Assembly (NCBI GenBank): GCA_017399685.1
Contig: JAFQBM010000035.1
Coordinates: 2,174-66,173, forward strand
Length of the DNA stretch: 64,000 bases
From: Lachnospiraceae bacterium
GTDB taxonomy: Bacteria; Bacillota; Clostridia; Lachnospirales; Lachnospiraceae
Direction of reading: 5' to 3'
The translations under genes and the position numbers were made by a program. This document shows positions 37,569 through 59,910 of this stretch, one piece after another. Below the pieces are notes generated by a model. It was given only the letters and a program-made list of their open reading frames with translations. It had not been told where the DNA came from and made no database searches. Numbering within the stretch: position 1 is the stretch's first letter; the number at the start of each line of letters is the position of its first letter.

Positions 37569-39110
37569 GTGAAAAAAGAATTGATAGTTGTTCTTGATTT
37601 CGGCGGACAGTATAATCAGCTGATTGCAAGACGAGTGCGCGAATGTAATGTGTATTGTGAAGTTCATCCGTATAATATGGGTTTGGACAAGTTAAAGGAA
37701 ATGAATCCAAAAGGTATCATTTTTACTGGTGGACCAAACAGTGTTTATGGTGAAGATTCTCCTCGTTGTGAAAAGGAAATTTTTGAAATGGGAATTCCTA
37801 TTTTAGGAATTTGCTATGGTTCACAACTTATGTCATATATGTTAGGTGGTAGTGTAAAAACTGCACCTGTAAGTGAATATGGAAAGACTGAAGTAGATGT
37901 AGAAGCTGGTTCTGTTTTATTGGATGGTGTAAGTCCTAAGACAATTTGCTGGATGAGCCATACTGATTATATTGAAAAAGAGCCGGAAGGATTTAAGATT
38001 ATTGCCCATACTCCTGTCTGCCCTGTTGCAGCTATGGAAGATGTCAGCCGTAATCTTTATGCAGTTCAGTATCATCCGGAAGTAATGCATACTCAGGAAG
38101 GTATGAAGATGCTTTCTAACTTCGTATACCAGATTTGTAAATGCTCCGGTGACTGGAAGATGGATTCTTTCGTAGAAACTACCATCAAAGAAATCAAAGA
38201 AAAAGTTGGAAACGGAAAAGTACTTTGTGCATTGTCCGGTGGTGTAGATTCTTCTGTTGCAGCAGTACTTTTAGCAAAGGCAATTGGAAAACAGCTTACT
38301 TGTGTTTTCGTAGACCATGGTTTACTTCGTAAAAATGAAGGCGATGAAGTTGAGGCAGTTTTTGGACCAGAGGGACAATACGACCTAAACTTTATCCGTG
38401 TAAATGCCCAGGAGAGATTTTACGAAAAATTAAAGGGTGTAGAAGAACCTGAAAGAAAACGTAAGATTATCGGTGAAGAATTTATCCGTGTATTTGAAGA
38501 AGAAGCAAAGAAAATCGGAGCTGTGGATTTCTTAGTACAAGGTACTATTTATCCGGACGTAATTGAATCCGGACTTGGAAAATCAGCAGTCATTAAGTCA
38601 CACCATAATGTAGGCGGACTTCCTGATTGTGTTGATTTTAAGGAAATTATTGAACCATTGCGTTTATTATTTAAGGATGAAGTTCGTAAGGCAGGTTTGG
38701 AATTAGGTATTCCTGAATATTTGGTATATCGTCAGCCATTCCCAGGTCCGGGACTTGGAATCCGTATCATCGGTGAAGTAACTGCAGAAAAGGTAAAGAT
38801 TGTCCAAGATGCAGATTATATTTATCGTGATGAAATTGCAAAAGCAGGAATTGACAAAGGCTTAGGACAATATTTTGCTGCATTGACTAATATGCGTTCC
38901 GTAGGTGTTATGGGTGACGAAAGAACCTATGACTATGCAGTAGCATTAAGAGCCGTAAATACTTCTGACTTTATGACAGCAGAAGCATCCGAAATTCCTT
39001 TCGAAGTATTACAAAAGGTAATGACAAGAATTATCAATGAAGTAAAAGGTGTAAACAGGGTAATGTACGATTTAACCAGTAAGCCACCTGGAACGATTGA
39101 GTTTGAGTAA
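37569..39110 (+). CDS. guaA: GMP synthase (glutamine-hydrolysing)
   Basis: GATase domain (GICYGSQLM), the ATP-PPase motif SGGVDSSV and the C-terminal ...[12 protein letters not shown] start with AGGAGG upstream. Confidence 0.95.
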
Positions 39111-39287
39111 AAAAACGGGTTTTAAAAAGCCAGTATTTATGCGGTTTTCAAACAAAAATGTTTAAGTTTTGGCAACGATTTGGCAACATTTTGACTCTAC
39201 TCAAAAAATAAATTTACTTTAAGAGCACAAGAAAACCTTACTGATTTTCAGATATGACAACTGAAAATTGGTAAGGTTTTTTCGTGC

Positions 39288-39845
39288 TTATTTTTTCTTT
39301 TTGCGTTTCGTTTCTTTCTTTTCTTCTTCTATTTCTTTTAGTCCGGCGAGAAGTATATCGCTGACTTCCTGTGAAGGAACCTTTGCCCAACGTTGGTGAG
39401 TATCAAACTCCGGATATTTGTACCGCCATTCATCATATTCCTCTTTGGTAATTTCGCCATTTTCCAACTTGGCTGCTTCTGCCTGCCATGCACGAAGCAT
39501 TTTGTCCATAGAAGAATAGGTAGAATAATCGGACTTGTCCAGACGAAGGCAGATTTCTCCATCTACCTCACTAATTTTCAGTCCATACATATCTTCCAAA
39601 GCAAAAAAGGTGTGCATAAGCCCAATATAAGTATCTATATTTGGCACAGATAGAGCATGAGTGCTGACATCAAGAAATTGAGCCATATTTTTTACAAGCT
39701 CATGTTTCGGTATTCTTGCTTCAGACTCATACTGCGCCATACGGACGTCAGAGGTTTTTCCTAAAAAACCTAAGTGTTCGCCGAGCTGTTTTTGCGTCAT
39801 TCCTTTTCGATTGCGGAAAAATTTAATACGTTGCCCGATTGCCAT
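39288..39845 (-). CDS. XRE-family HTH regulator (phage-repressor-like)
   Basis: N-terminal HTH IKFFRNRKGMTQKQLGEHLG. It is divergent from the xis/int module. 185 aa. Confidence 0.75.
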   Translation of the reverse strand: MAIGQRIKFFRNRKGMTQKQLGEHLGFLGKTSDVRMAQYESEARIPKHELVKNMAQFLDVSTHALSVPNIDTYIGLMHTFFALEDMYGLKISEVDGEICLRLDKSDYSTYSSMDKMLRAWQAEAAKLENGEITKEEYDEWRYKYPEFDTHQRWAKVPSQEVSDILLAGLKEIEEEKKETKRKKKK

Positions 39846-40005
39846 AATAATTCCTCCTTGTTTTCCAGAGGAAAATGCGACTGCCCTTGCAGGAGCAGAG
39901 GAATTATCCTCCTAACTAGATTTGTTTAGAGCAAGTATAACATGAGTAAATGAGGATAGCAAGAAGAACTTAAATAAAAAAGTTTAAGATTTTTTTGAAA
40001 ACCAC

Positions 40006-40034
40006 TTGACTTAACTTAAAATGTTTAGTAATAT
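40006..40034 (+). promoter_or_regulatory. Sigma-A-type promoter for the xis-int operon
   Basis: TTGACT (40006-40011), a 17-nt spacer and TAATAT (40029-40034). The inverted repeat TGTTTAGT...ACTAAACA overlaps it. Confidence 0.4.
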
Positions 40035-40091
40035 ATGCGATACAAACACTAAACAAATAAATTTAAGTTTCGAGAGAAAGGAGAAAAAGTT

Positions 40092-40271
40092 ATGGAAAAT
40101 AAGAACTTTATGACAGTGGATGAAGTGGCACAGGAATTGAATGTTTCAAAATCATATGCCTATAAGGTAGTCAGAGAGTTAAATGCAGAAATGCAGCAGT
40201 TAGGCTATCTGACAGTGACCGGAAGAGTAAACACGAACTTCTTCCGTAAGAAATTATGTTACAGCGAATAA
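40092..40271 (+). CDS. xis: excisionase-family HTH DNA-binding protein (59 aa, below the ORF-track cutoff)
   Basis: My own translation is MENKNFMTVDEVAQELNVSKSYAYKVVRELNAEMQQLGYLTVTGRVNTNFFRKKLCYSE. The MTVDEVA...S..Y pattern is typical of MerR-like excisionase HTH proteins. The RBS AAGGAGAAAAAG lies upstream. Confidence 0.6.
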   Translation: MENKNFMTVDEVAQELNVSKSYAYKVVRELNAEMQQLGYLTVTGRVNTNFFRKKLCYSE

Positions 40272-40301
40272 AAGAGATACAGAGGGAAAGGAGCTGATGT
40301 T

Positions 40302-41378
40302 ATGGCTGTATATAAAGACGGAGACAAATGGCGTGTCATTTACCGCTACACCAACTACAAAGGGGAGCGGAAGCAGACACAGAAACGAGGTTTTACGACT
40401 AAGCGAGAAGCGGTTGCATGGGAGCGGGAGGTCATGTTAAAGAGTGGATCAAAGCTGGATATGACCTTTGCCAGCTTCTTTGAAATCTATGAGGAAGATA
40501 AGAAAAAACGAGTAAAGGAAAATACATGGGAGTCTAAAAGTCATGTAATCCGTACCAAGATACTTCCTTATTTCGGAGAGCGCAAGATTGCGGAGATTGA
40601 GCCGAAGGATGTGATTGCGTGGCAGAATGAACTTCTTGCCTACAAGGGAGAGAATGGGGAAGTTTATTCCCCGACCTACTTGAAAACGATACACAGTCAG
40701 CTAAGTGCTATTTTCAATCACGCAGTCAGGTATTACCATTTGCCGAGCAATCCGGCACAGAAAGCCGGTTCCATGGGAAGTGAGGAACACAAGGAAATGC
40801 TGTTCTGGACAAAGGAAGAATATCTGAAATTTGCAGATGTGATGATGGATAAGCCTGTTTCTTATTATGCGTTTGAAATGCTTTACTGGTGCGGCATTCG
40901 TATGGGAGAGCTGCTTGCATTGACACCAAAGGATTTGGATTTTGAAAAGCAGACACTTACCATTAACAAATCATATCAGAGATTAAAGGGAAAGGATGTG
41001 ATTACTTCCCCGAAAACACCAAAAAGTAACAGAACCATTAAGATGCCCAAATTTCTATGTGAGGAAATGCAGGAGTATATTGGTATGTTGTATGAGATTG
41101 GAGAAGATGAAAGGTTGTTTCAGATTACCAAGTCTTATCTGCACCACGAGATGGACAGGGGAGCAAAAGCAGCCGGAGTAAAGCGTATTCGTGTTCATGA
41201 TTTAAGGCATAGTGCAATCTCGCTTTTAATAGAAATGGGATTTTCGGCTTTGGCGATTGCAGAAAGAGTTGGGCATGAAAGTATTGATATTACTTATCGG
41301 TATGCACATTTATATCCGACCAAGCAGACAGAAATGGCAAATAAATTGGATGTGGAAAGAATGAGAAAGGAGATGTGA
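40302..41378 (+). CDS. int: tyrosine site-specific integrase
   Basis: N-terminal arm-binding-like domain (KDGDKWRVIYRY). The catalytic residues are visible: GIRMGELLAL, VHDLRHSAIS, and GHESIDITYRYAHL. Confidence 0.9.
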   Translation: MAVYKDGDKWRVIYRYTNYKGERKQTQKRGFTTKREAVAWEREVMLKSGSKLDMTFASFFEIYEEDKKKRVKENTWESKSHVIRTKILPYFGERKIAEIEPKDVIAWQNELLAYKGENGEVYSPTYLKTIHSQLSAIFNHAVRYYHLPSNPAQKAGSMGSEEHKEMLFWTKEEYLKFADVMMDKPVSYYAFEMLYWCGIRMGELLALTPKDLDFEKQTLTINKSYQRLKGKDVITSPKTPKSNRTIKMPKFLCEEMQEYIGMLYEIGEDERLFQITKSYLHHEMDRGAKAAGVKRIRVHDLRHSAISLLIEMGFSALAIAERVGHESIDITYRYAHLYPTKQTEMANKLDVERMRKEM

Positions 41379-41381
41379 TGG

Positions 41382-41702
41382 ATGGATAAGAATTTAGACT
41401 GTAAAGGACGTTGGAGAAATAAGACGGTAGCGTTTCGTGTATCAGAGGAAGAAGGAAAGCTGATTGATAATTGCGTAGCGTTATCCGGTCTTACGAAACA
41501 GGATTATATCGTCAGACGGTTGCAATGCCGGGATGTGGTGGTGCAGGGGAATCCAAGAGTTTACAAAGCACTTCGCAATCAGATGGCTGATATTTATGAG
41601 GAATTGAAACGGTTGGAGAAATGCAGTGCAGAAAATGAAGAACTGCTCTACACAATACAACTGATTACAGAAATAATGAATGGACTAAAGGAGAAAGATT
41701 GA
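41382..41702 (+). CDS. ribbon-helix-helix protein (MobC-like)
   Basis: KTVAFRVSEEEGKLIDNCVALSGLTKQDYIVRRL resembles RHH relaxosome accessory proteins. The family assignment is tentative. Confidence 0.4.
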   Translation: MDKNLDCKGRWRNKTVAFRVSEEEGKLIDNCVALSGLTKQDYIVRRLQCRDVVVQGNPRVYKALRNQMADIYEELKRLEKCSAENEELLYTIQLITEIMNGLKEKD

Positions 41703-42856
41703 TGGCAGAAAATAAAAAAGCGACTGCTCCGGTTTCATCAGTTGGCGCAGATGGGAAGCAGTCGTTATGTAATAAACACAAGGAAATTATAGCAGATTTG
41801 CCCTCGCAGGGCAATCTGCAAGCCACAAATAATCGTGGTTTTTGTGCAGAAATTCAGACAGATAAACAGGATAGGATGGATAGATTGAAAACAGTTTCCA
41901 TGACAGAACTTTATGATACCGTTTATCCGCCAAAAATCCCAATTGTAGATGGTCTGATATACGCAGGTACTTATCTTTTTGTAGGTGCGCCTAAAGTAGG
42001 AAAGTCTTTCTTTATGGCACAGCTTGGCTATCATGTGAGCATGGGGCTGGATTTGTGGGATTATCCGGTGCGAAAGGGTACAGTGTTGTATCTGGCACTG
42101 GAGGATGATTATGCAAGATTACAGAAACGATTATCAAAAATGTTTGGCATGGAAAGCAGTGAAAACTTTCATTTTGCCACACAGTCCAAAAACTTGAATG
42201 AGGGATTGGAAGAACAGCTAAACCAGTTTGTCAAAGAGCATACAGACGCAAGGCTGATTATCATTGATACGTTGCAGAAAGTAAGGGAAGTTAGCGGAGA
42301 TAAATTCAGTTATGCAAGTGACTACGAGATTGTGACAAAGCTGAAAGAATTTAGTGATGTTCATGGTATTTGTCTTTTGGTAGTACACCATACAAGAAAG
42401 ATGGAGTCCTCAGACAGTTTTGATATGATTTCCGGTACAAACGGATTGTTAGGAGCAGCAGACGGAGCCTTTGTTATGCAGAAAGAAAAGAGAACGGACA
42501 ACAAGGCAGTTTTAGAGGTTGCAGGACGTGACCAGCAAGACCAAAGGCTATTGCTCAATTTTGACAGAGAGCAATGTGTTTGGAAGCTGACTAAAGCAGA
42601 AACGGAACTTTGGAAAGAACCGGCTGATCCGGTGCTGGAAGCTGTTGCAAAGGTGGTATCAGAAGAACAGCCACAGTGGAGTGGAACCGCTTCGGAATTG
42701 TTACAGCTTTTGCCGGAGATGGATATACAGCCAAATGTGTTGACAAGGAAACTGAACATAGGAGCAGAGAAACTGTTTATAGATTATGGTATTTGTTATG
42801 AAAGCAGCAGAGGTCATAGTGGGCGCATGGTAAAACTGGAGCTTGTGAAAGCGTAA
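41699..42856 (+). CDS. RepA-like P-loop ATPase (AAA_25-type)
   Basis: Walker A GAPKVGKS, Walker B LIIIDTL and LVVHHTRK. This resembles RecA-fold replicative/primase-associated ATPases of integrative elements. Confidence 0.65.
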   Translation: MMAENKKATAPVSSVGADGKQSLCNKHKEIIADLPSQGNLQATNNRGFCAEIQTDKQDRMDRLKTVSMTELYDTVYPPKIPIVDGLIYAGTYLFVGAPKVGKSFFMAQLGYHVSMGLDLWDYPVRKGTVLYLALEDDYARLQKRLSKMFGMESSENFHFATQSKNLNEGLEEQLNQFVKEHTDARLIIIDTLQKVREVSGDKFSYASDYEIVTKLKEFSDVHGICLLVVHHTRKMESSDSFDMISGTNGLLGAADGAFVMQKEKRTDNKAVLEVAGRDQQDQRLLLNFDREQCVWKLTKAETELWKEPADPVLEAVAKVVSEEQPQWSGTASELLQLLPEMDIQPNVLTRKLNIGAEKLFIDYGICYESSRGHSGRMVKLELVKA

Positions 42857-42858
42857 GC

Positions 42859-42941
42859 GTGACGATATGTGACGGTTGTGACGGTATTTTATATAACGGT
42901 GTCGGTATAGAAAATATCGTCACTATCGTCACGACCGTCAC
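42859..42941. repeat. Iteron-like array: 3 x GTGACG, an AT-rich centre, then 3 x CGTCAC
   Basis: GTGACG occurs at 42859, 42869 and 42878. CGTCAC occurs at 42918, 42927 and 42936. The array lies in the gap after the RepA-like gene. Confidence 0.7.
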
Positions 42942-42946
42942 GTGGA

Positions 42947-43201
42947 TTGATGGAAAGGATTGATAAAATGAAAAATATACAGATTTCAGAGCGGTTATTT
43001 TTTGCACTTTTGAAATATCATTTGTTGGAAGCAGACGAAGTGTTGCCAGAGATAAAGAAAGGTTTGGAAGAAAAACTGGAAGCAATGGTAAGACGGGAAC
43101 TTTATACAAAATATAAGACTGCACCAACAGAAGAAGAACGTGAAAAAGCAAGGCAGGAGTATTTGGAAAAGGTGGGAATGCATCGGGACTTTCGATGGTA
43201 A
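42947..43201 (+). CDS. hypothetical protein
   Basis: 84-aa charged helical ORF. The start is uncertain (42950 or 42968 are possible). Confidence 0.4.
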   Translation: MMERIDKMKNIQISERLFFALLKYHLLEADEVLPEIKKGLEEKLEAMVRRELYTKYKTAPTEEEREKARQEYLEKVGMHRDFRW

Positions 43202-43349
43202 ATTTTTTCTTCGTTGTGTATAACGAGAGCGTGGCACGCTCTTGTAAATATGGTTAAGGAGAAATGCGGTGCGATGATACAGTGTACGATTACAGATATT
43301 TAAGCAAAGTGTTTTGTTATTTTGAAAAACGAGAAAGAAGGTGCGTTTT

Positions 43350-43571
43350 ATGACAGAAGGAAGATTAGGATACAATCCGGCAAATGACAGATATGGATTG
43401 TTGGTATCGGATTTATGGGTGGATAACGGATTTCATTGTGGTGAATGTTTAGAAGTTTTTGTAGATGGAAAGTGGATAAGTACCAGAATGGAAATGTCAG
43501 CAGAAAGAAAATGGTATCTGGTGGACACACCTTACTATGGAAATCTGGAATACGTGAAAGCTCGTATTTGA
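43350..43571 (+). CDS. DUF5348-like small protein
   Basis: MTEGRLGYNPANDRYGL...FHCGECLEVFVDGKW resembles the DUF5348 family seen on clostridial mobile elements. This is from memory. Confidence 0.45.
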   Translation: MTEGRLGYNPANDRYGLLVSDLWVDNGFHCGECLEVFVDGKWISTRMEMSAERKWYLVDTPYYGNLEYVKARI

Positions 43572-43802
43572 ATTAAAGTGATGGCTTGTTGCTTTAAGGC
43601 AGAATGATAAAGAACGCATAGGTAAATGCGGTAGCAAGCCCCCGGCAGGGCGCAAAACCTGACTTGTCAGGTTGCATTTTTGATACCGCAGGTGTCAAAA
43701 GTGCTTTTGCGTTACTTTCGGCGAAAGTAACAAAGCCTGTGTGCCTGTCGGCACAAAATAGGACGGATAAAAAAGAGAAAACGAAAGAGAGGTGTCAGCC
43801 TA

Positions 43803-44432
43803 TTGGAGAGAACGATTAGCGGCATGATGGGGAAGGCCAATAGTGAAGCAAGGTGGAGTAATGCACGATTAACAGAGGAAAATAAGCTGTTACAAACCGA
43901 AATAAATGATTTAGCCGGGGAAAAGGCAAAACTGCAATCCGACAATAGGGAGTTGGAGGAGCAACAGCAGAAGCTTCAGGCAGAAATAGAAGCTATGGCA
44001 GGCTCTAAAGTGAAATTGGAACGAAATGTAAGAGCTTATGATGAGGAAGAACAATGGAGGTTGCCGGAACCGGGAGCATTTACAAGCGCAAAGTCTTATC
44101 GGGAAAATAGTGCAAAGCCACTGGTAACAAGGCTGAAAGAACTTGTAAAGAGCCTGACAATTAAATGTGTTAATCTTATGGAACAGGTGAAAAGGTTGAA
44201 AGAGCAGGTAACACAGCAGACTTCGGATATTGAGTGGTACAAAGGAAAACTAAGAGAACAGGCTGGTGTTGTGGAACAGTTGCAGGAAAAAGTAGCCGAT
44301 TTGGAGCGTGTAAAGCGTTATGCCGGGGCTGAAAAGGTGCAGAGTATGATTGACAGCGTGAAAGAGGTTGAAAGGCTGGAAAACGAGCAGAAACGGTTAC
44401 AAAGAAACTATAACAGAGGAATGAGCAGATAG
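43803..44432 (+). CDS. hypothetical coiled-coil protein
   Basis: 209-aa Q/E/K-rich coiled coil with a TTG start. No relaxase motifs are present. Confidence 0.45.
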   Translation: MERTISGMMGKANSEARWSNARLTEENKLLQTEINDLAGEKAKLQSDNRELEEQQQKLQAEIEAMAGSKVKLERNVRAYDEEEQWRLPEPGAFTSAKSYRENSAKPLVTRLKELVKSLTIKCVNLMEQVKRLKEQVTQQTSDIEWYKGKLREQAGVVEQLQEKVADLERVKRYAGAEKVQSMIDSVKEVERLENEQKRLQRNYNRGMSR

Positions 44433-44445
44433 GAGATGGATTGAT

Positions 44446-44844
44446 ATGATGGATAATGAAAAGGTGTTGGAGAAACATATCATTGGAGAAAATGGAATAA
44501 GCTACACACTTGGAGAGGATGGTTTATACTATCCGGATTTGAAATTGCTGGAGGGAACACATTATGAGATAGGAAAGTATGGATTAATGCGGTGGGAGTA
44601 TTTGAAAAACTACCGCAGAGGGGAGTATATTAAGTTGCTGATGGAAGGAAAACTAAATGAACATCTGCATGAGGTTGATGAAGAATGTCATGAGAGAGTG
44701 GAGCTTATTATGGAGCAGATGAAAGTCGGGGCAGGTATTACGGAAGAATTAAAAGCTACTGACCAGATGAAGTGGGTAGGGCTTATGAATAACGTGAAAA
44801 GTGCTGCGGAGGAGATTGTGTTGAGAGAAATAGTGTACATTTGA
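44446..44844 (+). CDS. TnpV-like transposon-associated protein
   Basis: GENGISYTLGEDGLYYPDL ... GKYG..R..YLK pattern resembles TnpV of clostridial mobilisable transposons. This is from memory. Confidence 0.55.
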   Translation: MMDNEKVLEKHIIGENGISYTLGEDGLYYPDLKLLEGTHYEIGKYGLMRWEYLKNYRRGEYIKLLMEGKLNEHLHEVDEECHERVELIMEQMKVGAGITEELKATDQMKWVGLMNNVKSAAEEIVLREIVYI

Positions 44845-44862
44845 TTATATATACTTAAAATA

Positions 44863-44896
44863 GCGGGCAGTTCGTTGCGAACTGCTCTGTTTTATT
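44863..44896 (+). terminator. Rho-independent terminator at the backbone/cargo boundary
   Basis: GCAGTTCG-TTG-CGAACTGC followed by TCTGTTTTATTT. Confidence 0.65.
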
Positions 44897-45040
44897 TGCG
44901 AAATGATGTGAAAACAAAAGAAAATAAAACTTCTGATAATAAATTATGAGAACTCATAATTAGTTCTGGAAAAACATATTGCATAATATAAGGAATTGTG
45001 ATATGATAACAGAAAGTATGTTCGAAAGATGGAGGCATAT

Positions 45041-45250
45041 ATGAAAATAAGTTATAAGAAGTTATGGAAATTGTTGATAGACAAAGACATGATGAAAAAA
45101 GATTTGGCGGAATCTGCTCAAATAAGTACAGCTTCAATAGCAAAATTAGGAAGAAATGAAAATGTTAATACAGACATTTTGCTTAGAATATGTCAGGCAT
45201 TGGAATGTGATATATCAGACATTATGGAAGTAGTTGAAGATACTGAATAG
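45041..45250 (+). CDS. XRE-family HTH protein (possible R-M controller)
   Basis: KDLAESAQISTASIAKLGRNENV is a Cro/C1-type HTH. The gene lies first in the Vsr-MTase-REase cluster. Confidence 0.65.
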   Translation: MKISYKKLWKLLIDKDMMKKDLAESAQISTASIAKLGRNENVNTDILLRICQALECDISDIMEVVEDTE

Positions 45251-45265
45251 TTTGGAGTGTTTGTT

Positions 45266-45718
45266 ATGGACAGGTTGACAAAAGAACAACGCCATAAAAA
45301 TATGAGTAACATAAAAAATAAGGATACAGGTATTGAAGTAAAGCTGAGAAAAGCACTTTGGGAAAAAGGTTACCGGTATCGTAAAAATTTTAATGCATTA
45401 CCTGGAAAACCGGATATCGTATTAACAAAATATAAAATAGCAATTTTTTGTGATAGTGAGTTTTTTCATGGAAAAGATTGGGATGATTTGAAGGCACAAC
45501 TTGAACGTGGTAAAAATGCAGATTTTTGGATTAAGAAAATATCAAGAAACCGAGAAAGAGATGAAGAAATAAATAAGCAATTAATGTTTATGGGATGGAC
45601 AGTCATAAGGTTTTGGGGAAAAGATATAAAGAAAGATGTTGAAGAATGTGTCAAAGTTGTGGAAGAAACCATATTTGAATTGACTATAGCTATCAATGAA
45701 GAAGATATTTTAGACTAA
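45266..45718 (+). CDS. vsr: very-short-patch repair endonuclease
   Basis: The Vsr motifs are visible: LPGKPDIVL, IFCDSEFFHG, and the GW.VIRFW C-terminal region. Confidence 0.85.
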   Translation: MDRLTKEQRHKNMSNIKNKDTGIEVKLRKALWEKGYRYRKNFNALPGKPDIVLTKYKIAIFCDSEFFHGKDWDDLKAQLERGKNADFWIKKISRNRERDEEINKQLMFMGWTVIRFWGKDIKKDVEECVKVVEETIFELTIAINEEDILD

Positions 45719-45734
45719 AGGAGACGAACTGACA

Positions 45735-46739
45735 ATGTATACATCAATAGATTTGTTTGCCGGAATAGGTGGAATTAGAAAAGGGTTTGAAAATGCTTTT
45801 GGAAAAGATATTTCAACGGTGTTTGTGAGCGAGTGGGACGAACACGCACAAAAAACATATAGAGCCAATTATGTAGATAATTTTGAAATAGCAGGGGACA
45901 TAACTAAGATTGACGAAAAAGAAATCCCTGCATTTGATATTTGTTTAGCAGGATTTCCATGTCAGGCTTTTTCAATGGCAGGTAAAAGAATGGGATTTGA
46001 TGATGATTATAAAGGGATGTGTAGAGGTACATTATTTCAAGATGTAGTACGAGTTTGCGAATATCATAAACCAAGCGTTATTTTTTGTGAAAATGTAAAA
46101 GGATTGACAATCCATGATAGAGGAAGAACCTTTAAAGTTATTAAACGTGCATTTGAGCAGATAGGCTATACCGTTTATGATAAAGTTTTAAATAGTAAGG
46201 ATTTTGGTGTGCCACAGAATAGAGAACGTATTTATATTGTTGCTTTTCGCAATGATATAGACAGTACAAGTTTTAAGTTTCCGGTAGGAAACAATTCAGA
46301 TACAAAGATTAAAGATATAATGGAAGAAAATGTTGTAAGTGTAAAGTACTATCTTTCAACAACTTATTTAGAAACTCTGGAGCGACACAAGGAAAGGCAC
46401 AAAGCCAGAGGAAATGGTTTTGGCTATGAAATACGCGATATAAATGGTCAAGCGGGAGCTATTGTATGTGGAGGAATGGGGAGAGAAAGAAATCTGATTG
46501 TGGATAAGCGATTGAAGAATTTCACCCCTGTTACGCATATAAAAGGTGAGGTTAACAGGTTGGGAATAAGGAAAATGACACCAAGAGAGTGGGCGAGATT
46601 GCAGGGATTTCCGGATAGCTTTAAATTGGAACTTGCAGATACGCATTTATATAAACAGTTTGGTAACAGTGTAACGGTTAATGTTATTGAAGCAATTGCA
46701 AAAGAGATAAGGAGGATACTTGAAAATGGCAAAAAATGA
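45735..46739 (+). CDS. dcm: DNA (cytosine-5)-methyltransferase
   Basis: Motif I DLFAGIGG, motif IV GFPCQAFS, motif VI ENVKGL, motif VIII QNRERIY and motif X GNSVTV. Confidence 0.9.
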   Translation: MYTSIDLFAGIGGIRKGFENAFGKDISTVFVSEWDEHAQKTYRANYVDNFEIAGDITKIDEKEIPAFDICLAGFPCQAFSMAGKRMGFDDDYKGMCRGTLFQDVVRVCEYHKPSVIFCENVKGLTIHDRGRTFKVIKRAFEQIGYTVYDKVLNSKDFGVPQNRERIYIVAFRNDIDSTSFKFPVGNNSDTKIKDIMEENVVSVKYYLSTTYLETLERHKERHKARGNGFGYEIRDINGQAGAIVCGGMGRERNLIVDKRLKNFTPVTHIKGEVNRLGIRKMTPREWARLQGFPDSFKLELADTHLYKQFGNSVTVNVIEAIAKEIRRILENGKK

Positions 46740-47808
46740 TGGAAGAATGTCAGGAAATAAAGGCGAATGGTCGGAATTATATGCATTTATGAAATTATTA
46801 AGTCAGGGAAGGGTATATGCAGCAACTGAGAAGGTAGAAAAAATAGATGATGTTTTTTATCCGATTCTTAAGATTATGCGTGAAGAACAAAAAGGACAGA
46901 TTATTGATTATGTAATTACTGAAGATAATATTGATATCGAAATCGAGTCAAGAACGATTATGTCTGTTTCAAGAAAAGAATTCGATGATAATGCAAATTT
47001 TTTGTTACAGGAAATTGCTACTCATAGTGGAAGTTTTGAATTGGAAGAAGTTGCCAAATTTGCAAATGGAATTAAGGTAACAAAGATAAAAGCACCGTCT
47101 TCTGATACAACGGATATTTCTATGCAGATACAGGATATACATACAAATTATATTCGTAATGTTGGTTTTTCAATAAAATCAGAAGTGGGTAATGCTCCTA
47201 CTTTACTCAATGCAGGGCAGACTACGAATTTTATCTATAAGGTTACCGGAATTACAGCGGAACAGGCACAGGAAATTAATGCAATAGATACCTCAACTAA
47301 GATTAAAGACAGAATAAAAGCAATCAAAGAACTGGGCGGTACTATTAGTTATGTTGATATGAATCATCAGGGATTTAAACGTAACCTGATAATGGTGGAT
47401 AGCAGTATGCCGCAAATTATTGGCAATATGCTTTTGTATTATTTTGAAGAAGATATTAAAGAATGTGATAAATTAGTTGAGCTTGCAGGACAGAGAGATC
47501 CGCTTGGATATGGGGACGCTATGATGTATGAATATAAATTTAAAAAGTTCCTTTGTTCATGCGCATTGGGAATGAAGCCTGCAAAGAAATGGGATGGTTT
47601 GGATGAAGCCAATGGCGGTTATATAATTGTAAAAGCTGATGGTGAGATACTGGCATATCATATTTATAACAGAAATTTCTTTGAACAGTATTTGTTGGAT
47701 AATACTATTTTGGAAAGGGCTTCTACAAGCAGACATGAGTATATGCGTTTATATGAGGAAGAGGGAGAAATGTTTATTAAATTTAATTTGCAGGTAAGGT
47801 TTAGATAA
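46720..47808 (+). CDS. type II restriction endonuclease, HpaII-like
   Basis: The N-terminal NKGEWSELYAFMKLL motif recalls the HpaII REase family (from memory). It overlaps the methyltransferase stop. TTG start with AAGGAGG upstream. Confidence 0.55.
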   Translation: MKMAKNDGRMSGNKGEWSELYAFMKLLSQGRVYAATEKVEKIDDVFYPILKIMREEQKGQIIDYVITEDNIDIEIESRTIMSVSRKEFDDNANFLLQEIATHSGSFELEEVAKFANGIKVTKIKAPSSDTTDISMQIQDIHTNYIRNVGFSIKSEVGNAPTLLNAGQTTNFIYKVTGITAEQAQEINAIDTSTKIKDRIKAIKELGGTISYVDMNHQGFKRNLIMVDSSMPQIIGNMLLYYFEEDIKECDKLVELAGQRDPLGYGDAMMYEYKFKKFLCSCALGMKPAKKWDGLDEANGGYIIVKADGEILAYHIYNRNFFEQYLLDNTILERASTSRHEYMRLYEEEGEMFIKFNLQVRFR

Positions 47809-47855
47809 AAGAAAGTAAAGATAAATGGCTAATTTAGAACATTGATGGAAAAAAT

Positions 47856-48830
47856 GTGTTAGAGGTGATGAACGTGTCTATAGCTGAAGAATATAGGAAA
47901 ATATACAATGTGTATGTATGCAAGGAATTGGAACAAGAAATTGCAATATACGAGGCGGAAAAAGGGATAAATAATTATCAACCATTAAGTCATAATTGCG
48001 CACAAAAATGTGCTGGTAACTGTAATCATCAATGCCATAAAAGTCTTGGAAAATTAATGAGAAAAAATATTGTATTTTATTGTTATGGCGAAGACGAGAT
48101 AGTAACCAATTTTCAAAATGGACTTTTTTCTGATTTGGAAAAAGCTACGAAAGCAGCCTATAGATTGCGTTTACCCAAACGCCAACCAAACATGGATGGA
48201 TTACCAAGTGAGGTTTTATTGGATGCAATTATTCAATCATTATTTCCTGATGCATATAAAATGGCTGTTAGGACAATATTTAGGCAAAATGATAACAATG
48301 AAATAAAGGGCTATGATTTAACTTATTTTACTAATATGCATGGAACAATTACATTATGGCTGGGACAAGCTAAATTGGGGAGTAAACAATATTGTAAAAA
48401 TGGTATTTTAGAAGATTTAGAAAAAAAGTATACAGATTTGTATATGGCTAATCAAATTTATTTTATGGCAGATAAACCTACTGGACTTACAGAAGAAGGA
48501 AAACAAATTGCAAATTTATTGAATAGGTTAAATATGTTGAATGCATATGAAGATGATGATAATCGAGCTGAGCAACTCATGCAATTTTTAAAGACACAAA
48601 ATATAGATATATGTATACCATGTCTTTTGGCATATAACAAGGCAGATGTGTATGCGGATGTTAGAAAACTTGAAAATAAAATGAAATCTGAGATGGCATG
48701 GGCAAAAGGAATTTTTGAAAAATATTTTAAATTTGCAGGAATTGAGCCAAAATTGATTTTTATAATATTTCCAATAGATGATATTGAAGCCTTACGAGGA
48801 GATGAAGGATTTTATGAAGGATTATGTTAA
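47856..48830 (+). CDS. DUF1837-like (HamA-like) putative PD-(D/E)xK effector
   Basis: The pattern GLPSEVLLDAII ... KGYDLTYF ... LWLGQAKLG fits the E...D...(E/Q)xK layout. It overlaps the downstream SF2 helicase gene. The start is uncertain. Confidence 0.5.
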   Translation: MLEVMNVSIAEEYRKIYNVYVCKELEQEIAIYEAEKGINNYQPLSHNCAQKCAGNCNHQCHKSLGKLMRKNIVFYCYGEDEIVTNFQNGLFSDLEKATKAAYRLRLPKRQPNMDGLPSEVLLDAIIQSLFPDAYKMAVRTIFRQNDNNEIKGYDLTYFTNMHGTITLWLGQAKLGSKQYCKNGILEDLEKKYTDLYMANQIYFMADKPTGLTEEGKQIANLLNRLNMLNAYEDDDNRAEQLMQFLKTQNIDICIPCLLAYNKADVYADVRKLENKMKSEMAWAKGIFEKYFKFAGIEPKLIFIIFPIDDIEALRGDEGFYEGLC

Positions 48831-51216
48831 TTTGCTTTTGGATGCGATAAACAATTATAATGATGAAGATATGAGCAGTAAAAATAAATTGCGTGATTTA
48901 GTATGTATAATTTCTGAAAACGATAATATAAAAAACGATCCGCTTATTAGGGAATTATTATATACTGCTTCTCATAAGATGCGCATTTTTGGTTATAATG
49001 TGCAGAACGGTTTTTATAAGCAGGATATTCTAATTGAACAAAATTCATCCGAATTAATGTATCTTCGCAATCAAAGTATTATTAGCAGGTATCGGTCTAA
49101 AGTAAGAAGTAATAATATACTTGATAAAAGTCAACAAAATATTATTGATTTTTATCAATCTTTGGATAAAAAGCGAATGCTGGTTAGCGCACCGACTTCA
49201 TATGGAAAAACTTTTATTATGCGTGAGATATTATATTTGAATCAAGAAAGATATAATAATGTATTACTTGTGTTTCCGACAGTAGCATTATTACGAGAAA
49301 ATGCATTGAATATGGAAGAATTAAACCGTGAAAAGAAAATGGGATATAATGTTATCAAATCCATTGATGGCGAAATAAATAGTCAAGAAAGAAATATTTT
49401 CGTATTTACGCCTGAAAGAGCAATGCAGCTATTAGCAAACTACCCGGATATTAAGATAGATTTCTTTTTTTATGATGAAATGTATAAAATTGACGAAGAT
49501 TACTGTAATGAAGAGACAGATGATAATGAGGAGCAAACAAGGAAAAATCCTTATACAGAACATACATTTTTAGACGAGGCGAGGGCAAAAACATTTCGCA
49601 TTTGTTTATACATTCTTTCGAAAAGGGTAGAAGATTATTATTTGGCTGGACCTAATTTAAAAAGAGATAAATTCGGAAAGGGAATGCAGAGATATATTGC
49701 AACAAATGACATAAAAATTAAAGAAATTGAATTTGAGCCTACAAAACGAATACAAGTAAAAGCATATAATAAGACAATTGATGAAGATTATACAGATTTG
49801 CCTTATTTAGAAAAACCAGAGTTGGCTAGTATGCACAGTAAAGTCAATGATAGAATTTGTGATGTGGTTGAGTATATTGAAAAAAAAGGATACGGAGCGA
49901 CAATGCTATATTGCACAACTCCTGCAAAAGCAAATGAATACGCAACTAAGTTGGCACAAAGACATCGGGAGAATGTAGTAACAAACAAAAGATTTTCCTT
50001 GTTTATTGAACATCTCAAAAGAAATTATAATATAGACGATTCTATTAATGAATGGAGTTTTGTGAATGTATTGGAGAAAGGTTTTGGAATGCATCATGGA
50101 AAAATGCCAAAATATATTCAAAAAGAGGTATTGGATTTGTTTAATGATGGTGTATTTAATTTGCTTTTTTGTACGTCAACAATTGTTGAGGGGGTTAACA
50201 CTAATGCAAAGAATATGGTTGTATTAAATCATAAAAAAGGTGGAAGTGATTTAACGGTTTTTGATTTTAAAAATATTATCGGAAGGGCTGGAAGATATTA
50301 TCATAATTTTGTTGGAAGATATTTTTTAGTTGATAAGGAATTGAAAAAATTTGAGCATACTGAAGATTTGGAACTTAATTTTATTACTTATGATGAACAA
50401 ATTTTAGATCCTATAGATATAGATAATTCTGAATATGATGATTTGACGTATGAGAATAAGAAACTTAAACAAAAGAGATTAGAGGAACAACGAGAATATA
50501 TATTAAAAGATGAAGTGTATGAAAAAAATAGACTGATTAAAAAAGAGTATCAGGAAATACTTTTAAAATTTTTGATAAATAATGATGAACTTTACAATAA
50601 GTTTTATAATTATACTACTTTCCCGGACATATTGGCACAGTTTACTACTTACCATGCTATGAGTACTGTACTTGACATATTTGAACAGTCAGGTCTGCTT
50701 GAGAAGATGATTGTTTCCAGATACAAGGCTATCAGTAATACATATTGTAGTGAGGGTTTTCGAGGTCTGTTGAAATATGAAATTGATAATGCCTGGAAAG
50801 AAAAATATGATAAGTATGGAAATAAAGTGAAAAAGAGCATAGATAGGGCATACATGGATGCATTTAAAACACAAAAGGAAATTATCGAACATAAGATACC
50901 CAAAATGTTGGCACTATTTGAAACTATTTTTTTATATGCGTCTTCAGTTAAAGGGAGAAAAATAAGTAAATTTTCGCTGTCAAAAGTTACACGTTTTTAT
51001 GAAACTGGTGTAAAAAGTTATTTTGGAGAGCAACTGGTTGAATTTGGATTTCCAGTTGATGCAATTAAAAGGATAGAAGATAGTAATGTGAAATTAGTGT
51101 CTATGGATGCGGATTCAAGTAAGAAGTATATACAGGAAAATTTGAATGATATTAGTAAGGTATTGGATATGTATGAAAAGGAATTATTAAATAGGGCTTT
51201 AAAATCTATTTTTTAG
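48814..51216 (+). CDS. SF2 (Ski2-like) DEAD/DEAH-box helicase, HamB-like
   Basis: Motif I APTSYGKT (GKT at 49204-49212), motif II YDEM (49471-49482), MHHGKM, TSTIVEGVN and GRAGR. The ORF is open from 48778; 48802 and 48814 are the possible ATG starts. Confidence 0.75.
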   Translation: MKDYVNLLLDAINNYNDEDMSSKNKLRDLVCIISENDNIKNDPLIRELLYTASHKMRIFGYNVQNGFYKQDILIEQNSSELMYLRNQSIISRYRSKVRSNNILDKSQQNIIDFYQSLDKKRMLVSAPTSYGKTFIMREILYLNQERYNNVLLVFPTVALLRENALNMEELNREKKMGYNVIKSIDGEINSQERNIFVFTPERAMQLLANYPDIKIDFFFYDEMYKIDEDYCNEETDDNEEQTRKNPYTEHTFLDEARAKTFRICLYILSKRVEDYYLAGPNLKRDKFGKGMQRYIATNDIKIKEIEFEPTKRIQVKAYNKTIDEDYTDLPYLEKPELASMHSKVNDRICDVVEYIEKKGYGATMLYCTTPAKANEYATKLAQRHRENVVTNKRFSLFIEHLKRNYNIDDSINEWSFVNVLEKGFGMHHGKMPKYIQKEVLDLFNDGVFNLLFCTSTIVEGVNTNAKNMVVLNHKKGGSDLTVFDFKNIIGRAGRYYHNFVGRYFLVDKELKKFEHTEDLELNFITYDEQILDPIDIDNSEYDDLTYENKKLKQKRLEEQREYILKDEVYEKNRLIKKEYQEILLKFLINNDELYNKFYNYTTFPDILAQFTTYHAMSTVLDIFEQSGLLEKMIVSRYKAISNTYCSEGFRGLLKYEIDNAWKEKYDKYGNKVKKSIDRAYMDAFKTQKEIIEHKIPKMLALFETIFLYASSVKGRKISKFSLSKVTRFYETGVKSYFGEQLVEFGFPVDAIKRIEDSNVKLVSMDADSSKKYIQENLNDISKVLDMYEKELLNRALKSIF

Positions 51217-51397
51217 CTGCTTCATATCAAAAAATATATGGTTACACATTTATGATAGTTAAGGTAGGGGCATTGTTACAATGCGTGCACTGTGTGTGAA
51301 CAATTTAAATATTTAAGCTATAAAAGAAAGTTGAAAACAGAAGAATATCTGAAGAAAATTTGAGTTATCTTCAAGGGTTTTAGAAAGAGAGGTACTT

Positions 51398-53623
51398 ATG
51401 GAAGAGTTAAAGATGAAATTAGAAAACTGTTTTGGTATTCAAAATATGCAACAAGATATTAATTTTTCAAAAAATAATGTAGGGGTAATATATGCACCGA
51501 ATGGAACAATGAAATCGTCGTTAGCTAAAACATTTGAATACATTAGAGCTGGCAAGGTGGTTGAAGAAAAAATATTTGGTGCTAATAGTTCTTATTCTAT
51601 TACGGATGAAAATGGTAAAGATATTTTACCGGAAAATATAATGGTCATTAATCCGTTTGACGAAAAGACATATGAAAATCAGGGGATGTTAATGGCAAAT
51701 GCAGAATTAAGAAAGAAATATTTATTAATTCATAAAGATATTGATGACAAGAAGGAAGCCTTATATGAGGAGTTGAAGTCACTATTGGGTTATTCGTCAA
51801 GAAGTTCTTTTAATGTTGAGAGTACAATGTTATTAGATTGGAAAAGTACTAAAAAAGAATTGTTTTTATGTTTGGAGAATATATCCAATGTGCTTCATGA
51901 TTCAGATATGAACTGTTGTTTGAAAGTGGATGAAATAGATTATAATACTTTATTCAATGATAAAGTATATTCTATGATTACTACTGGAAAAACGTCAGAG
52001 TTGATTGAAGAATATGAAAAGAAATATAACGAGCTAGTTGAAAAGTCTTTATATATGCAGAAGGGGATTATTGATCATAATAATTACACGAATATTAGTG
52101 ATTCATTGAATAATAATGGATTCTTTGGAGCAAATAACGAGATAAAGTTGAATGCAAAGGATGGAAGCACATCAATAATGATTAAATCACAAGTAGAATT
52201 AAATGATTTAATTAAGAATGAAAAAGAACAGGTTCTCAATACAAAAGAATTAAAAGAATTGTTTGAAAAAATAAATAAAGCAATTAGTAAAAATAAAGAT
52301 ACACAAGCATTTAATGCGTTTTTACAGCAGCATCCTGACATAGTATCTGAATACAAAGATATAGAAAAATTCAAGAAAAAGATATGGGTAAAGGTTTTTT
52401 TGGCTTCTGAAACAAAATTATCAGAACTATTAGCTGATTATAAAAAAGCTCAAGATGAACTTAAAGTATTGAGGAACAAAGCTAAGCAAGAAACGACAGA
52501 TTGGAATAAGGCATTGGATCTGTTTAAGGAAAGATTTTTTGTACCATTTACTATAGAAACCGCAAATCAGGAAGATGTTATTCTTAATATGGATATGCCA
52601 AGTTTTAAATATATATTTTCTGATGAGAGGGGAATTAAGGAAGTTGCAAAAGAAAATTTACTGGAAGTATTGAGTACTGGGGAGAAAAGGGCATATTATA
52701 TCCTGAATTTAATATTTCAGATTTTGGTAGCAAAAAATGAGGGGAAAGAAAAAATAGTGATTTTGGATGATATATCAGAGTCATTTGATTATAAAAATAA
52801 GCACGCAATTATTGAGTACATAAGTGATATATCAGGATTTGTTGATGCACAAGGGAATAAGCTATTTAAAGTACTATTGCTGACACATAACTTTGATTTT
52901 TATAGGACAGTTGCGTTGAGAATAACAACACGGGCAAATGCTTATATAGCTTTTACGGATAAAGGCGAGGTGAAGTTTGAAAAAGGTCAGTACACAAAAA
53001 ATATTTTTGGGCATTATAAAGAACTTCTTATTAAGGGAAATTGTGATAATATTATAATTGCAGCGATTCCGTTTGTTAGAAACTTAATAGAATACACGGA
53101 AGGTGATAGTGATGCAGATTATTTGCGTTTAACAAGTATATTACACTATAAAACAGACACAAAGACAATCACATTAAAAGATGTTCAAGACATATTTAAC
53201 AGGCATTGGTGTAAGAATGGAAATTTTAGTTTTGCAGTGGGGCGAGAAACTGAATTGATATATGATATCATTATGGCTGAAGCGAATAAAATCACAAATA
53301 TAGAAAAATTAGAGATAGAAAGCAAACTGATTTTGTCAATGGCAATAAGATTAAAATCTGATGAATTTATGACACAGCAGATTTTGACAAAATTACCAAA
53401 TGGTTTAGATGTTATCAATGATATATATAGTAAGAAGAATCAAAGTGCGTGGTTGATTAAGGAATATAAGAAAAATATAAACGATGACGTGATGGGAACA
53501 TTGGAACAGGTTGCTATGCTTACCCCTGAAAATATACACTTAAATTCTTTTATGTTTGAACCTATTTTAGATATGTCCTTGGTACATTTATATGATTTAT
53601 ATCAGAAGGTAAAAGCATTTTAG
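51398..53623 (+). CDS. ABC/Rad50-like ATPase with a helical insert and a PrrC/RloC-like C-terminal domain
   Basis: Walker-A-like APNGTMKS (51494-51517), signature LSTGEK, Walker B IVILDD, H-loop LLTHN, then a C-terminal R561-x3-E565...H583 motif. Confidence 0.5.
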   Translation: MEELKMKLENCFGIQNMQQDINFSKNNVGVIYAPNGTMKSSLAKTFEYIRAGKVVEEKIFGANSSYSITDENGKDILPENIMVINPFDEKTYENQGMLMANAELRKKYLLIHKDIDDKKEALYEELKSLLGYSSRSSFNVESTMLLDWKSTKKELFLCLENISNVLHDSDMNCCLKVDEIDYNTLFNDKVYSMITTGKTSELIEEYEKKYNELVEKSLYMQKGIIDHNNYTNISDSLNNNGFFGANNEIKLNAKDGSTSIMIKSQVELNDLIKNEKEQVLNTKELKELFEKINKAISKNKDTQAFNAFLQQHPDIVSEYKDIEKFKKKIWVKVFLASETKLSELLADYKKAQDELKVLRNKAKQETTDWNKALDLFKERFFVPFTIETANQEDVILNMDMPSFKYIFSDERGIKEVAKENLLEVLSTGEKRAYYILNLIFQILVAKNEGKEKIVILDDISESFDYKNKHAIIEYISDISGFVDAQGNKLFKVLLLTHNFDFYRTVALRITTRANAYIAFTDKGEVKFEKGQYTKNIFGHYKELLIKGNCDNIIIAAIPFVRNLIEYTEGDSDADYLRLTSILHYKTDTKTITLKDVQDIFNRHWCKNGNFSFAVGRETELIYDIIMAEANKITNIEKLEIESKLILSMAIRLKSDEFMTQQILTKLPNGLDVINDIYSKKNQSAWLIKEYKKNINDDVMGTLEQVAMLTPENIHLNSFMFEPILDMSLVHLYDLYQKVKAF

Positions 53624-53832
53624 AAAAAGAAGTTATGTTTTAAAAATTTGCTGATTGATTTAATTACCTGTTATGCTATAATATTCTCATGGCAACACTT
53701 TGGCAACAGAAAATCAGTAAGCCAAAATAAATTATGCAAATGAAGTAAAATCTCGGCAGTTTTCAGATAAAACCTAAACAAAAAGATTTAAGTTTGAGCA
53801 ACAACTTGCCGAGTTTGAATAGTAGACATTTT

Positions 53833-53877
53833 GTTCCGAAATACTGAATTTATCGGTGTTTCGGAACTTTTTATTTT
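53833..53877 (+). terminator. Rho-independent terminator with no gene directly upstream (candidate displaced guaA terminator)
   Basis: GTTCCGAAA-17 nt-TTTCGGAAC followed by TTTTTATTTT. Confidence 0.6.
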
Positions 53878-54092
53878 CTCCGTGATGTTAATATGATGTT
53901 GCCAGAAGAAAGTGTTTACTTTTCCTACCCAAAATCGAGGCTAACTTGTAAAAGTAAATTCCGTATGAAAGAGTAAATTTCATCTGCGTATAAAAATTGC
54001 GAACGTAAAGTTCATATTGAGAAAAACGGTGATGTGTAATACAATGAGATATATTAGGGTTATTATGCTTATTTCTAGAAGGGGGATTAAAT

Positions 54093-54701
54093 ATGAGTAG
54101 ACGATTTTCATTACAAATTCTACTTCCTATAGAAGGCTATGAGGAAGATAAGATATACACATGCGAAGACATTGAGCTTAAAGTGGTGAATTCTAATCTG
54201 AAGCCGGATAATATATATTATAGACGTTTAAAGGAAAAATCTGTTTATACATCTTTTGATGATATTGCTGCATTTGCTTGCCAAAAATATTCGCTAGGAG
54301 AAATACATAACTTTTCTATGCATACCGATTATTTTGGTGCTCGCGAGATTGAATATGCAGGCAATAGATACATTGTTACAGAAGATGAAGTAAAACAGCT
54401 TGAAAGAGAACATATTACAGAATCTGTATATTGTAATGAATTCAAATACTGTAGTTTGAGTTGGTTTTATACCAGTATTGGGGACGAGCTTCTTCCGGAA
54501 GATATGGCTGTCGTGGATGATGAGCTGATACAAAAAGCTTCATCTTTAGTGGGATATGAGTCAGAGAAAGATTTTGCGAGCAAGTTGGCTGATGTTATAG
54601 AGGAGGAAGCCGATTGGGAAGACAAGTTTATAGCATCGCTCATATTGGCAAAGGAAATTGCTGGACGTGTGAATGGAAGAGCGGTTTTGTGGTATGACTG
54701 A
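54093..54701 (+). CDS. hypothetical protein
   Basis: 202-aa ORF with GGGGGA upstream. I recognise no family. Confidence 0.4.
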   Translation: MSRRFSLQILLPIEGYEEDKIYTCEDIELKVVNSNLKPDNIYYRRLKEKSVYTSFDDIAAFACQKYSLGEIHNFSMHTDYFGAREIEYAGNRYIVTEDEVKQLEREHITESVYCNEFKYCSLSWFYTSIGDELLPEDMAVVDDELIQKASSLVGYESEKDFASKLADVIEEEADWEDKFIASLILAKEIAGRVNGRAVLWYD

Positions 54702-54722
54702 TAAAAGAAAGTTGGTGAATAT

Positions 54723-59907: not shown

Positions 59908-59910
59908 TAT

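Follow-up and report, generated by a model that had tools for sequence, protein, structure and literature searches.

The 3' end of guaA, the gene for GMP synthase, serves as an integration site in Staphylococcus aureus for SaPIbov1 and Tn5801. The first is one of the SaPIs, phage satellites which encode packaging functions, and the second is conjugative. The same gene end is a known site of integrative and mobilisable elements (IMEs), as in the streptococcal IMEs with integrases of the Tyr_3 family (Coluzzi 2017, PMC5357655). Other guaA islands are ATE-1, a Brucella IncP island and GIsul2 (Guedon 2017, PMC5704250), and tandem accretion is known for IMEs (PMC5704250). A search for literature linking guaA, integrases and integrative elements with Lachnospiraceae retrieved no paper. 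Here we examined 64,000 nucleotides from Lachnospiraceae bacterium (assembly GCA_017399685.1, contig JAFQBM010000035.1, positions 2,174 to 66,173 of the forward strand), called the window throughout. An initial annotation had proposed an integrase-borne, non-conjugative island next to guaA, whose backbone is that of a mobilisable element and whose defence genes are stacked over about 9 kb, and had called this gene end an integration hotspot. The latter is established in the literature cited above; the former was borne out by the junctions, by relatives and by gene scans. Very probably, positions 39099-53818 are a single IME of a large family which docks at the guaA stop codon in Lachnospiraceae, carrying a decayed relaxase and defence cargo, and followed by the remnant of an older neighbour.

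The ends of the island were located by repeats and by alignment with relatives. An 8-bp repeat, GAGTTTGA, lies at 39099-39106 and again at 53811-53818, a repeat-to-repeat distance of 14,712 bp. In the form of a guaA terminus, i.e. GAGTTTGA(G/A)TA(A/G), it occurs at 39099 and 53811, and GAGTTTGARTAR matched the 64 kb at these two positions only (0.18 matches expected by chance). Inside each end, at 39170 and 53690, is a 19-nt tandem arm-site pair, TGGCAACnnTTTGGCAACA (0.00 expected by chance); TGGCAACNNTTTGGCAACA was found at these two positions of the 64 kb and nowhere else, again with 0.00 matches expected. In the left-end alignment homology between elements begins at the core, and this includes one element which is not flanked by guaA. 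In the right-end alignment it ends just past ...CTTGCCGAGTTTGA. The smallest core common to the relatives is GAGTTTG, and an element at a site other than guaA (L088) shares only this heptamer. Judged by these alignments, the element is 39099-53818 and the crossover lies inside GAGTTTG(A). The former guaA end (GAA TAG) is now found at 53817-53822, and the present stop (GAG TAA) is supplied by the element. The guaA open reading frame (ORF) ends at 39110, as annotated, with ...IEFE*; its last codons and its stop were rebuilt by the element. It stays intact because the element brings a new stop codon together with a strong bidirectional terminator; the latter is element-borne and conserved in related elements. 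The limits proposed before, 39150-53823, thus hold at the right to within a few bases, and the left end has to be moved to 39099 in the guaA terminus.

Other candidate junctions were rejected. The island had been described as bracketed by imperfect direct repeats. These are real and beyond chance, but the 33-nt imperfect pair at 39150-39182 and 53776-53808 (26/33 identical) is an internal arm motif and not the crossover. A hairpin-like stretch at 39118-39146, considered as core or as replacement terminator, folds no better than shuffled sequences, and homology starts to its left, at GAGTTTG. Two independent Logan unitigs from different runs (L003 and L004) both begin exactly at 53711, within the conserved right arm. 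As right junction this position was discarded; right of it are the arm pair, the palindromic box and the core, all conserved in relatives. Most likely, the break is a branch of the assembly graph, caused by related elements or variants which share this arm in the same samples. At the junction of backbone and cargo (44.85-45.03 kb) neither a core nor an arm pair, i.e. no internal att remnant, was detected.

How might the integrase recognise these ends? The 7-mer repeats have a period of 11 nt, and across elements the arm sequence varies with the N-terminal domain of the integrase; the catalytic domain is more conserved. In elements with GGCAAC arms the N-terminal domain is 65-95% identical to that of the window, in elements with other arms 38-56%, the catalytic domain of these being 50-81% identical. 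Because arm sequence and N-terminal domain co-vary, the repeats would fit arm-type sites read by the Arm-DNA-bind_4 domain. Invariant columns of the left-end alignment comprise the boxes CCAGTATTTATGCGG and a palindromic AAAC-N-GTTTAAG motif which recurs in the right arm; the stretch 39130-39166 does not form a significant hairpin (fold against shuffles, z = -0.8). Just before the right arm pair is an outward-facing promoter-like site with a TATAATA that five related elements share without change; transcription from it might cross attR, or attP once the element is circular.

The end architecture is conserved in many independent loci. From a set with one genome per species 80 guaA loci were taken, 67 of which have at least 100 nt after guaA; the window's species is absent from this set, the best GuaA match being 90%. 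A 6-7-mer repeated exactly in tandem at a period of 11 nt starts 56-61 nt past the guaA stop in about 28 of the 67 loci; with imperfect pairs counted, about half of the loci have such a repeat, an overall range of about 28-36. The sequence of the repeat varies by element: GGCAAC, GATAAC, GGTACT, GACAAT, GTTCCC, GCTACT, TTGCATT and others. In the window and in six loci (L063, L065, L014, L053, L054, L037) the distal end has a second copy of the pair, and in these seven a copy of the guaA terminus including the stop codon follows about 100-115 nt to the right of the distal pair. Truly empty sites exist in other species (L008, L015, L017), where guaA is followed by a terminator only. Many contigs of metagenome-assembled genomes (MAGs) stop 30-300 nt after guaA (e.g. 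L005, L007, L016, L024, L025, L035, L051, L055), consistent with assemblies and bins breaking at a variable hotspot.

The backbone was found with other cargo, as the initial annotation had expected for relatives. The integrase belongs to a family of at least 8000 proteins at E <= 1e-30. L092 contains an 8.1-kb element with the same arms and core (Int 94%, Xis 95%, NikA 89%, AAA_25 89% identical), whose adjoining guaA is only 55% identical; it carries TetR, flavodoxin-like and FMN-binding genes. In L085-L091 (Int 92%) the element resides between the genes of an rlmB-type methyltransferase and a sigma factor, not at guaA, the junctions share only GAGTTTG, and the cargo consists of a hydrolase, YhcG and an AAA_15/21 plus DUF4435 (PARIS-like) pair. 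This element occurs in a gut species of very high abundance (more than 1000 index blocks); an example of the junctions is L088, 8861 and 17557-17640. Three further elements have the same backbone at guaA, with a transpeptidase and a reverse-transcriptase cassette formed by an RVT_1 plus DUF6602 pair (L096), an ABC-F-type protein and an aminoglycoside nucleotidyltransferase (L056), or EcsC and an Eco57I-type methylase (L080). Backbone proteins which are 86-95% identical were thus found in distant hosts. By these identities, the same backbone has moved between distant hosts with its cargo exchanged.

The integration and backbone genes which had been annotated after guaA, i.e. XRE repressor, 59-aa excisionase and tyrosine integrase followed by RHH (ribbon-helix-helix) protein, RepA-like ATPase (an AAA_25 protein in our scans), DUF5348-like and TnpV-like genes, are all present where they had been placed. 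The R...HxxR...H...Y region of the integrase aligns to PDB 3NKH and to the Tn1549 integrase, and the protein is of full length compared to its homologues. Xis scored 59.8 bits against the NCBIfam model of ICEBs1 Xis, the cutoff of which is 100. The island thus encodes a site-specific recombinase and is flanked by an attL and an attR that can be recognised, as an IME should be, and its integrase does not belong to some larger element with different ends.

The island had been described as lacking visible relaxase and conjugation genes. For conjugation this is correct: genes for type IV secretion or a coupling protein were not detected, and conjugation domains were present in 0 of the 17 island ORFs scanned. 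For the relaxase it is not. The 209-aa gene listed as coiled coil is a MobV relaxase with an internal deletion. Its residues 1-13 correspond to residues 7-19 of the MobV protein of L063 and its residues 21-209 to residues 276-462 (49% identity, 2e-52). With the last 199 residues of P0122 it shares 95% identity; upstream of these, P0122 runs into a Mob_Pre domain with an HxDE...PHIH motif. In PHROGs the 209-aa protein matches only positions 263-453 of 456 in phrog_31146. A tblastn search of the window identified no remnant of the catalytic domain elsewhere, which excludes a full-length relaxase in the island. In relatives the syntenic position between DUF5348/AAA_25 and TnpV is occupied by relaxases of the Mob_Pre (L063/L065, L056), MobA_MobL (L080) or PF03432 (L042) type. 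Since the island's own relaxase is a remnant without Mob_Pre domain and those of relatives are intact, the element is a decayed IME. Going by the 95% identity between the remnant and an intact version, the deletion is recent. Mobilisation in trans rather than self-transfer, as had been suggested, remains the expected route; the reason is decay of the relaxase and not a family without relaxases. In other close backbone relatives relaxase genes are fragmented or truncated as well (L092, 13240-14265; L088, 11026-11997), and relaxase loss seems to be frequent in this family. Upstream of the mob gene is a conserved inverted-repeat block, about 65 nt of which (43675-43739) are nearly invariant among the window, L063/L065 and L056, whereas the Mob proteins are only 37-49% identical. 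This block is the putative origin of transfer (oriT).

The gene content of the distal cargo was confirmed; by Pfam and PADLOC matches it consists of a restriction-modification (R-M) system with Vsr, a Hachiman-like pair and an ABC-like ATPase. The low-GC block downstream of TnpV measures 8.6 kb, and each protein has a full-length match at the family level. The R-M genes, with a methylase of the Dcm type, lie in one operon (PF00145 5e-95, PF09561 2e-121, PF03852 8e-29); a CCGG specificity is predicted only. In the Hachiman pair HamA (DUF1837) adjoins HamB, a superfamily-2 helicase. The third module has the motifs of an ATPase (ABC signature LSTGEKR, Walker B IVILDD, and a non-canonical P-loop); its identity could be refined to the PADLOC candidate PDC-S46. 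Another assembly of the same island (L002, 10,147 bp) contains a single difference from the window, TAT to TAA at its position 1213 (window 46352). This truncates the C5 methyltransferase (Y206*) and leaves the HpaII-family endonuclease intact. Either the assembly is in error here, or the variant exists in the population, in which case the restriction gene would be expected to be toxic or silent.

Table 1. Features of the guaA island and its borders (positions in the window).
Feature	Position	Strand	Basis or remark
guaA (GMP synthase), target gene	37569-39110	+	Pfam GATase, GMP_synt_C
attL core/overlap GAGTTTGA	39099-39106	+	within last guaA codons; homology between elements in different hosts begins here
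Left-arm boxes CCAGTATTTATGCGG and palindromic AAAC-N-GTTTAAG motif	39130-39166	+	invariant columns in left-end alignment
Left arm-type site pair TGGCAACgatTTGGCAACA	39170-39188	+	7-mer, 11-nt period; 59 nt past guaA stop
Bidirectional terminator, guaA read-through and convergent XRE gene	39223-39289	.	-35.2 kcal/mol, z = -11.3
XRE/HTH_31 regulator, divergent from xis-int	39288-39845	-	HTH_31/HTH_3; homologues at same position in relatives
Xis, 59 aa	40092-40271	+	NCBIfam ICEBs1 Xis 1.6e-16, below curated cutoff; phrog_989
Tyrosine integrase, N-terminal arm-binding domain	40302-41378	+	Arm-DNA-bind_4, SAM_3, Phage_integrase
NikA-like RHH relaxosome accessory protein	41382-41702	+	PF21983, 1.9e-10
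AAA_25 RecA-fold ATPase	41699-42856	+	resembles helicase part of primase-helicases; no primase domain (Pfam, PHROGs)
Two small backbone genes: 84-aa protein without family; DUF5348 protein (43341-43571)	42947-43571	+	conserved in L080, L092
Putative oriT, conserved inverted-repeat block upstream of mob gene	43630-43755	+	conservation across relatives
MobV relaxase remnant, 209 aa	43803-44432	+	in-frame deletion of about 255 codons; Mob_Pre catalytic domain gone
TnpV (44446-44844) and terminator	44446-44887	+	marks backbone end and GC break
Type II R-M cassette: HTH_26 controller-like gene, Vsr, C5 cytosine methyltransferase, RE_HpaII endonuclease	45029-47808	+	
Hachiman pair HamA (DUF1837) and HamB helicase	47856-51216	+	PF08878; PADLOC HamA1 2e-18, HamB1 8e-94
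PDC-S46, 741-aa ABC/SMC-like ATPase, single-gene phage-defence candidate	51398-53623	+	PADLOC 3e-233, residues 1-740
Outward-facing promoter-like site, TTGATT-16-TGnTATAAT (extended -10)	53655-53682	+	just before right arm pair
Right arm-type site pair TGGCAACacTTTGGCAACA	53690-53708	+	copy of left pair; present in aligned relatives
attR core GAGTTTGA, then displaced former guaA end ATAG	53811-53822	+	right-end homology among elements ceases here
Left-arm remnant of second guaA element, TGATGTT-arm family	53819-53941	+	hairpin 53833-53867 and T-run, arm pair 53883-53900, conserved box

The base composition follows this division (GC 40-43% for backbone sequence, 28-34% for cargo and about 32-39% for the flanks). 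An Rfam scan of 37-57 kb matched no family. Upstream, at 33137-37064, are holA (DNA polymerase III delta), a germination protease (Peptidase_A25) and spoIIP, pointing to a spore-forming Firmicute as host.

From this anatomy the following mechanism is proposed. The integrase would bridge the tandem arm repeats (TGGCAAC, 11-nt period) near both ends and recombine within the 7-8-bp overlap GAGTTTG(A) in the last guaA codons, with excision controlled by the divergent XRE regulator and the small Xis. Excision is predicted to yield an attP junction ...CAACTTGCCGAGTTTGAGTAAAAAAACGGG... and a repaired guaA site ...GGAACGATTGAGTTTGAATAGTAGACATTTTG.... In its original state the element carried a complete MobV relaxase along with the NikA-like gene and the putative oriT; later the catalytic domain of the relaxase was deleted in frame. 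The present element can probably still excise; for transfer it would depend on both a cognate relaxase and a conjugative pore being provided in trans.

What terminated guaA before the island arrived? The strong terminator at 53833-53877 had been taken for the original one of guaA, pushed away by the insertion. A genuine hairpin followed by a T-run is present at 53833-53867 (-21.7 kcal/mol, z = -6.6). If it were native, no second element would have to be postulated downstream, and this agrees with its position directly after the displaced guaA end GAATAG, with the terminators right after guaA in empty sites elsewhere (L008, L017), and with the scan of 54-64 kb, in which neither an integrase nor a second TGATGTT pair was found. 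The adjoining sequence speaks otherwise. TGATGTTaataTGATGTT at 53883-53900 starts 60 nt past the displaced stop, and offset and period are exactly those of element left arms. Metagenomes were scanned for guaA core, 50-66 nt and TGATGTT-N4-TGATGTT. Core plus TGATGTT arms were present in at least 120 loci, with guaA preceding the core in most of them. A reverse-oriented integrase follows, usually within 30-600 nt, in all loci with enough downstream sequence (about 80 of the 120 listed); these integrases are 37-51% identical to that of the window. From 53811 to about 53941, including the box beyond the arms, the window is 71-74% identical to such left arms; then homology ends. Six loci have the same compound junction, in which a TGATGTT-type left arm comes directly after a right arm of the GGCAAC type, and in several genome loci other second elements directly follow attR. 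A native terminator is therefore improbable. The hairpin belongs to a left arm of the TGATGTT family; on the strength of this comparison, it terminated guaA before the insertion, yet it is element-derived. The island would then have inserted between guaA and an older TGATGTT-arm element, of which only the left arm of about 125 bp is recognisable. This arrangement is tandem accretion as described for IMEs (PMC5704250). Beyond the remnant, 54093-64000 looks accessory as well, with a 202-aa orphan, a Schlafen AlbA_2/HATPase_c_4 protein, DUF6756, a PIN_3 toxin with a small upstream ORF, and PadR. A Schlafen-like gene directly follows guaA in L012 (11571-12698; 82% aa identity), and another is located in L181 (2034-3183; 93% aa identity) 8 kb upstream of a guaA-core/TGATGTT/integrase junction. 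It may be element cargo.

Is the island itself still mobile, and is it an IME at all? Possibly it is by now fixed and immobile, Int, Xis and att sites looking intact but excision no longer taking place, with the cargo kept by selection alone. Every contig with the exact guaA or the exact flank is occupied, the relaxase is dead, and neither attP nor attB was found. However, the core repeats match each other exactly, neither arm pair is damaged, no truncation affects int, xis or the XRE gene, and the relaxase deletion is recent, its remnant being 95% identical to an intact version; with about five contigs sampled, missing empty sites weigh little. We consider immobility unlikely. Far less credible still, indeed hardly to be entertained, is a SaPI-like phage-inducible chromosomal island (PICI), i.e. 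a satellite, or a prophage remnant in place of a conjugatively mobilised element. SaPIbov1 shares the guaA 3' end, divergent regulators, xis and int are present, and the ATPase is like the helicase part of phage primase-helicases. But Pfam and PHROG scans revealed no terminase, capsid, packaging or capsid-redirection genes and no primase-replication module, and the NikA-like gene, the relaxase remnant and the relaxases of close relatives indicate conjugative mobilisation.

Several points weigh against the decayed but excisable IME that we prefer. The initial annotation had called for an empty-site allele joining about 39150 to about 53810. In the same species none was found: look-ups with the exact guaA and with the 202-aa protein returned occupied contexts only, and an exact scan of metagenome contigs with the right flank gave no match. 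Because the species, rare in collections, is sampled in only about five contigs, this lack is weak evidence. An attP, a circular form or a same-family tandem signature was not present in the viral contigs or loci examined. Excision competence is probable, as read solely from intact genes and sites, and the roles of arm repeats, oriT block and XRE and Xis genes are assigned by analogy and thus putative. Short homologues of the 209-aa protein which have no relaxase domain are common, also on long contigs; a protein of this length might be functional and not simply a product of decay. The defence role of PDC-S46 is a guilt-by-embedding prediction that makes it a candidate only, and the genes at 54-64 kb may or may not belong to the older element.

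A broader and quite tentative idea, which we would sooner expect to fail than to hold, is that a whole superfamily of mobilisable elements might share GAGTTTG at the guaA stop in gut Lachnospiraceae as its docking site. Arm repeats and the arm-binding domains of the integrases would have diverged into a dozen or more specificities, whereas the core and a core-to-arm geometry of about 58 nt would be fixed. Elements of different specificity could then stack in tandem without cross-excision and build up multi-system defence islands step by step. In this view the relaxase deletion may be more than decay: the C-terminal coiled-coil protein which it leaves to be expressed, and standalone versions of which are common, would perhaps be kept to interfere with, or hitch onto, the mobilisation of competitors.

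The element itself is a partly decayed, well-delimited but ordinary member of a very common type of mobile island, and no new mechanism is revealed. Its interest lies in the anatomy of the site, the abundance of the family and the context of PDC-S46. Ends, core and arm sites are defined at the base level for a very abundant and apparently undescribed family of guaA-docking IMEs of gut Lachnospiraceae, which moves defence, resistance and redox genes as exchangeable cargo from one distant host to another, and a natural context is provided for the candidate PDC-S46. This should aid the annotation of mobile elements and defence islands in gut metagenomes, in which many MAG contigs break exactly here.

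How does the island compare with described systems? With SaPIbov1 and Tn5801 it shares the target gene end, and it contains the gene set of neither. As in the Tn1549 and Tn916 integrases, an Arm-DNA-bind_4 domain is N-terminal and direct-repeat arm sites are present at both ends; unlike these, the element has one specific target and not AT-rich sites, and the match to the solved Tn1549 integrase is remote (E about 1e-7). The excision module resembles that of ICEBs1 in the small Xis, for which ICEBs1 Xis is the closest match, and in the divergent XRE regulator; it differs from it by the absence of an ImmA-like anti-repressor and by an Xis score below the cutoff. The mobilisation genes are closest to MobV (Mob_Pre, pMV158 MobM-type): L063, L056 and P0122 encode Mob_Pre at this place, and of such a protein the window retains 10-13 residues at the N-terminus and the coiled-coil half at the C-terminus, besides the conserved block upstream. 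In contrast to MobV proteins it has lost the catalytic domain with the HxDE...PHxH motif, and some equally close backbones use MobA_MobL or PF03432. Above all the island resembles the guaA IMEs of Firmicutes, with a tyrosine integrase at the guaA 3' end, short direct repeats, a mobilisation module without conjugation pore, variable cargo and tandem accretion with decayed elements. The likeness to the streptococcal Tyr_3 IMEs is one of site and modules. From the known guaA IMEs it is set apart by its Lachnospiraceae host, by the deleted catalytic domain of its relaxase and by the three defence modules which it carries instead of resistance or other traits.

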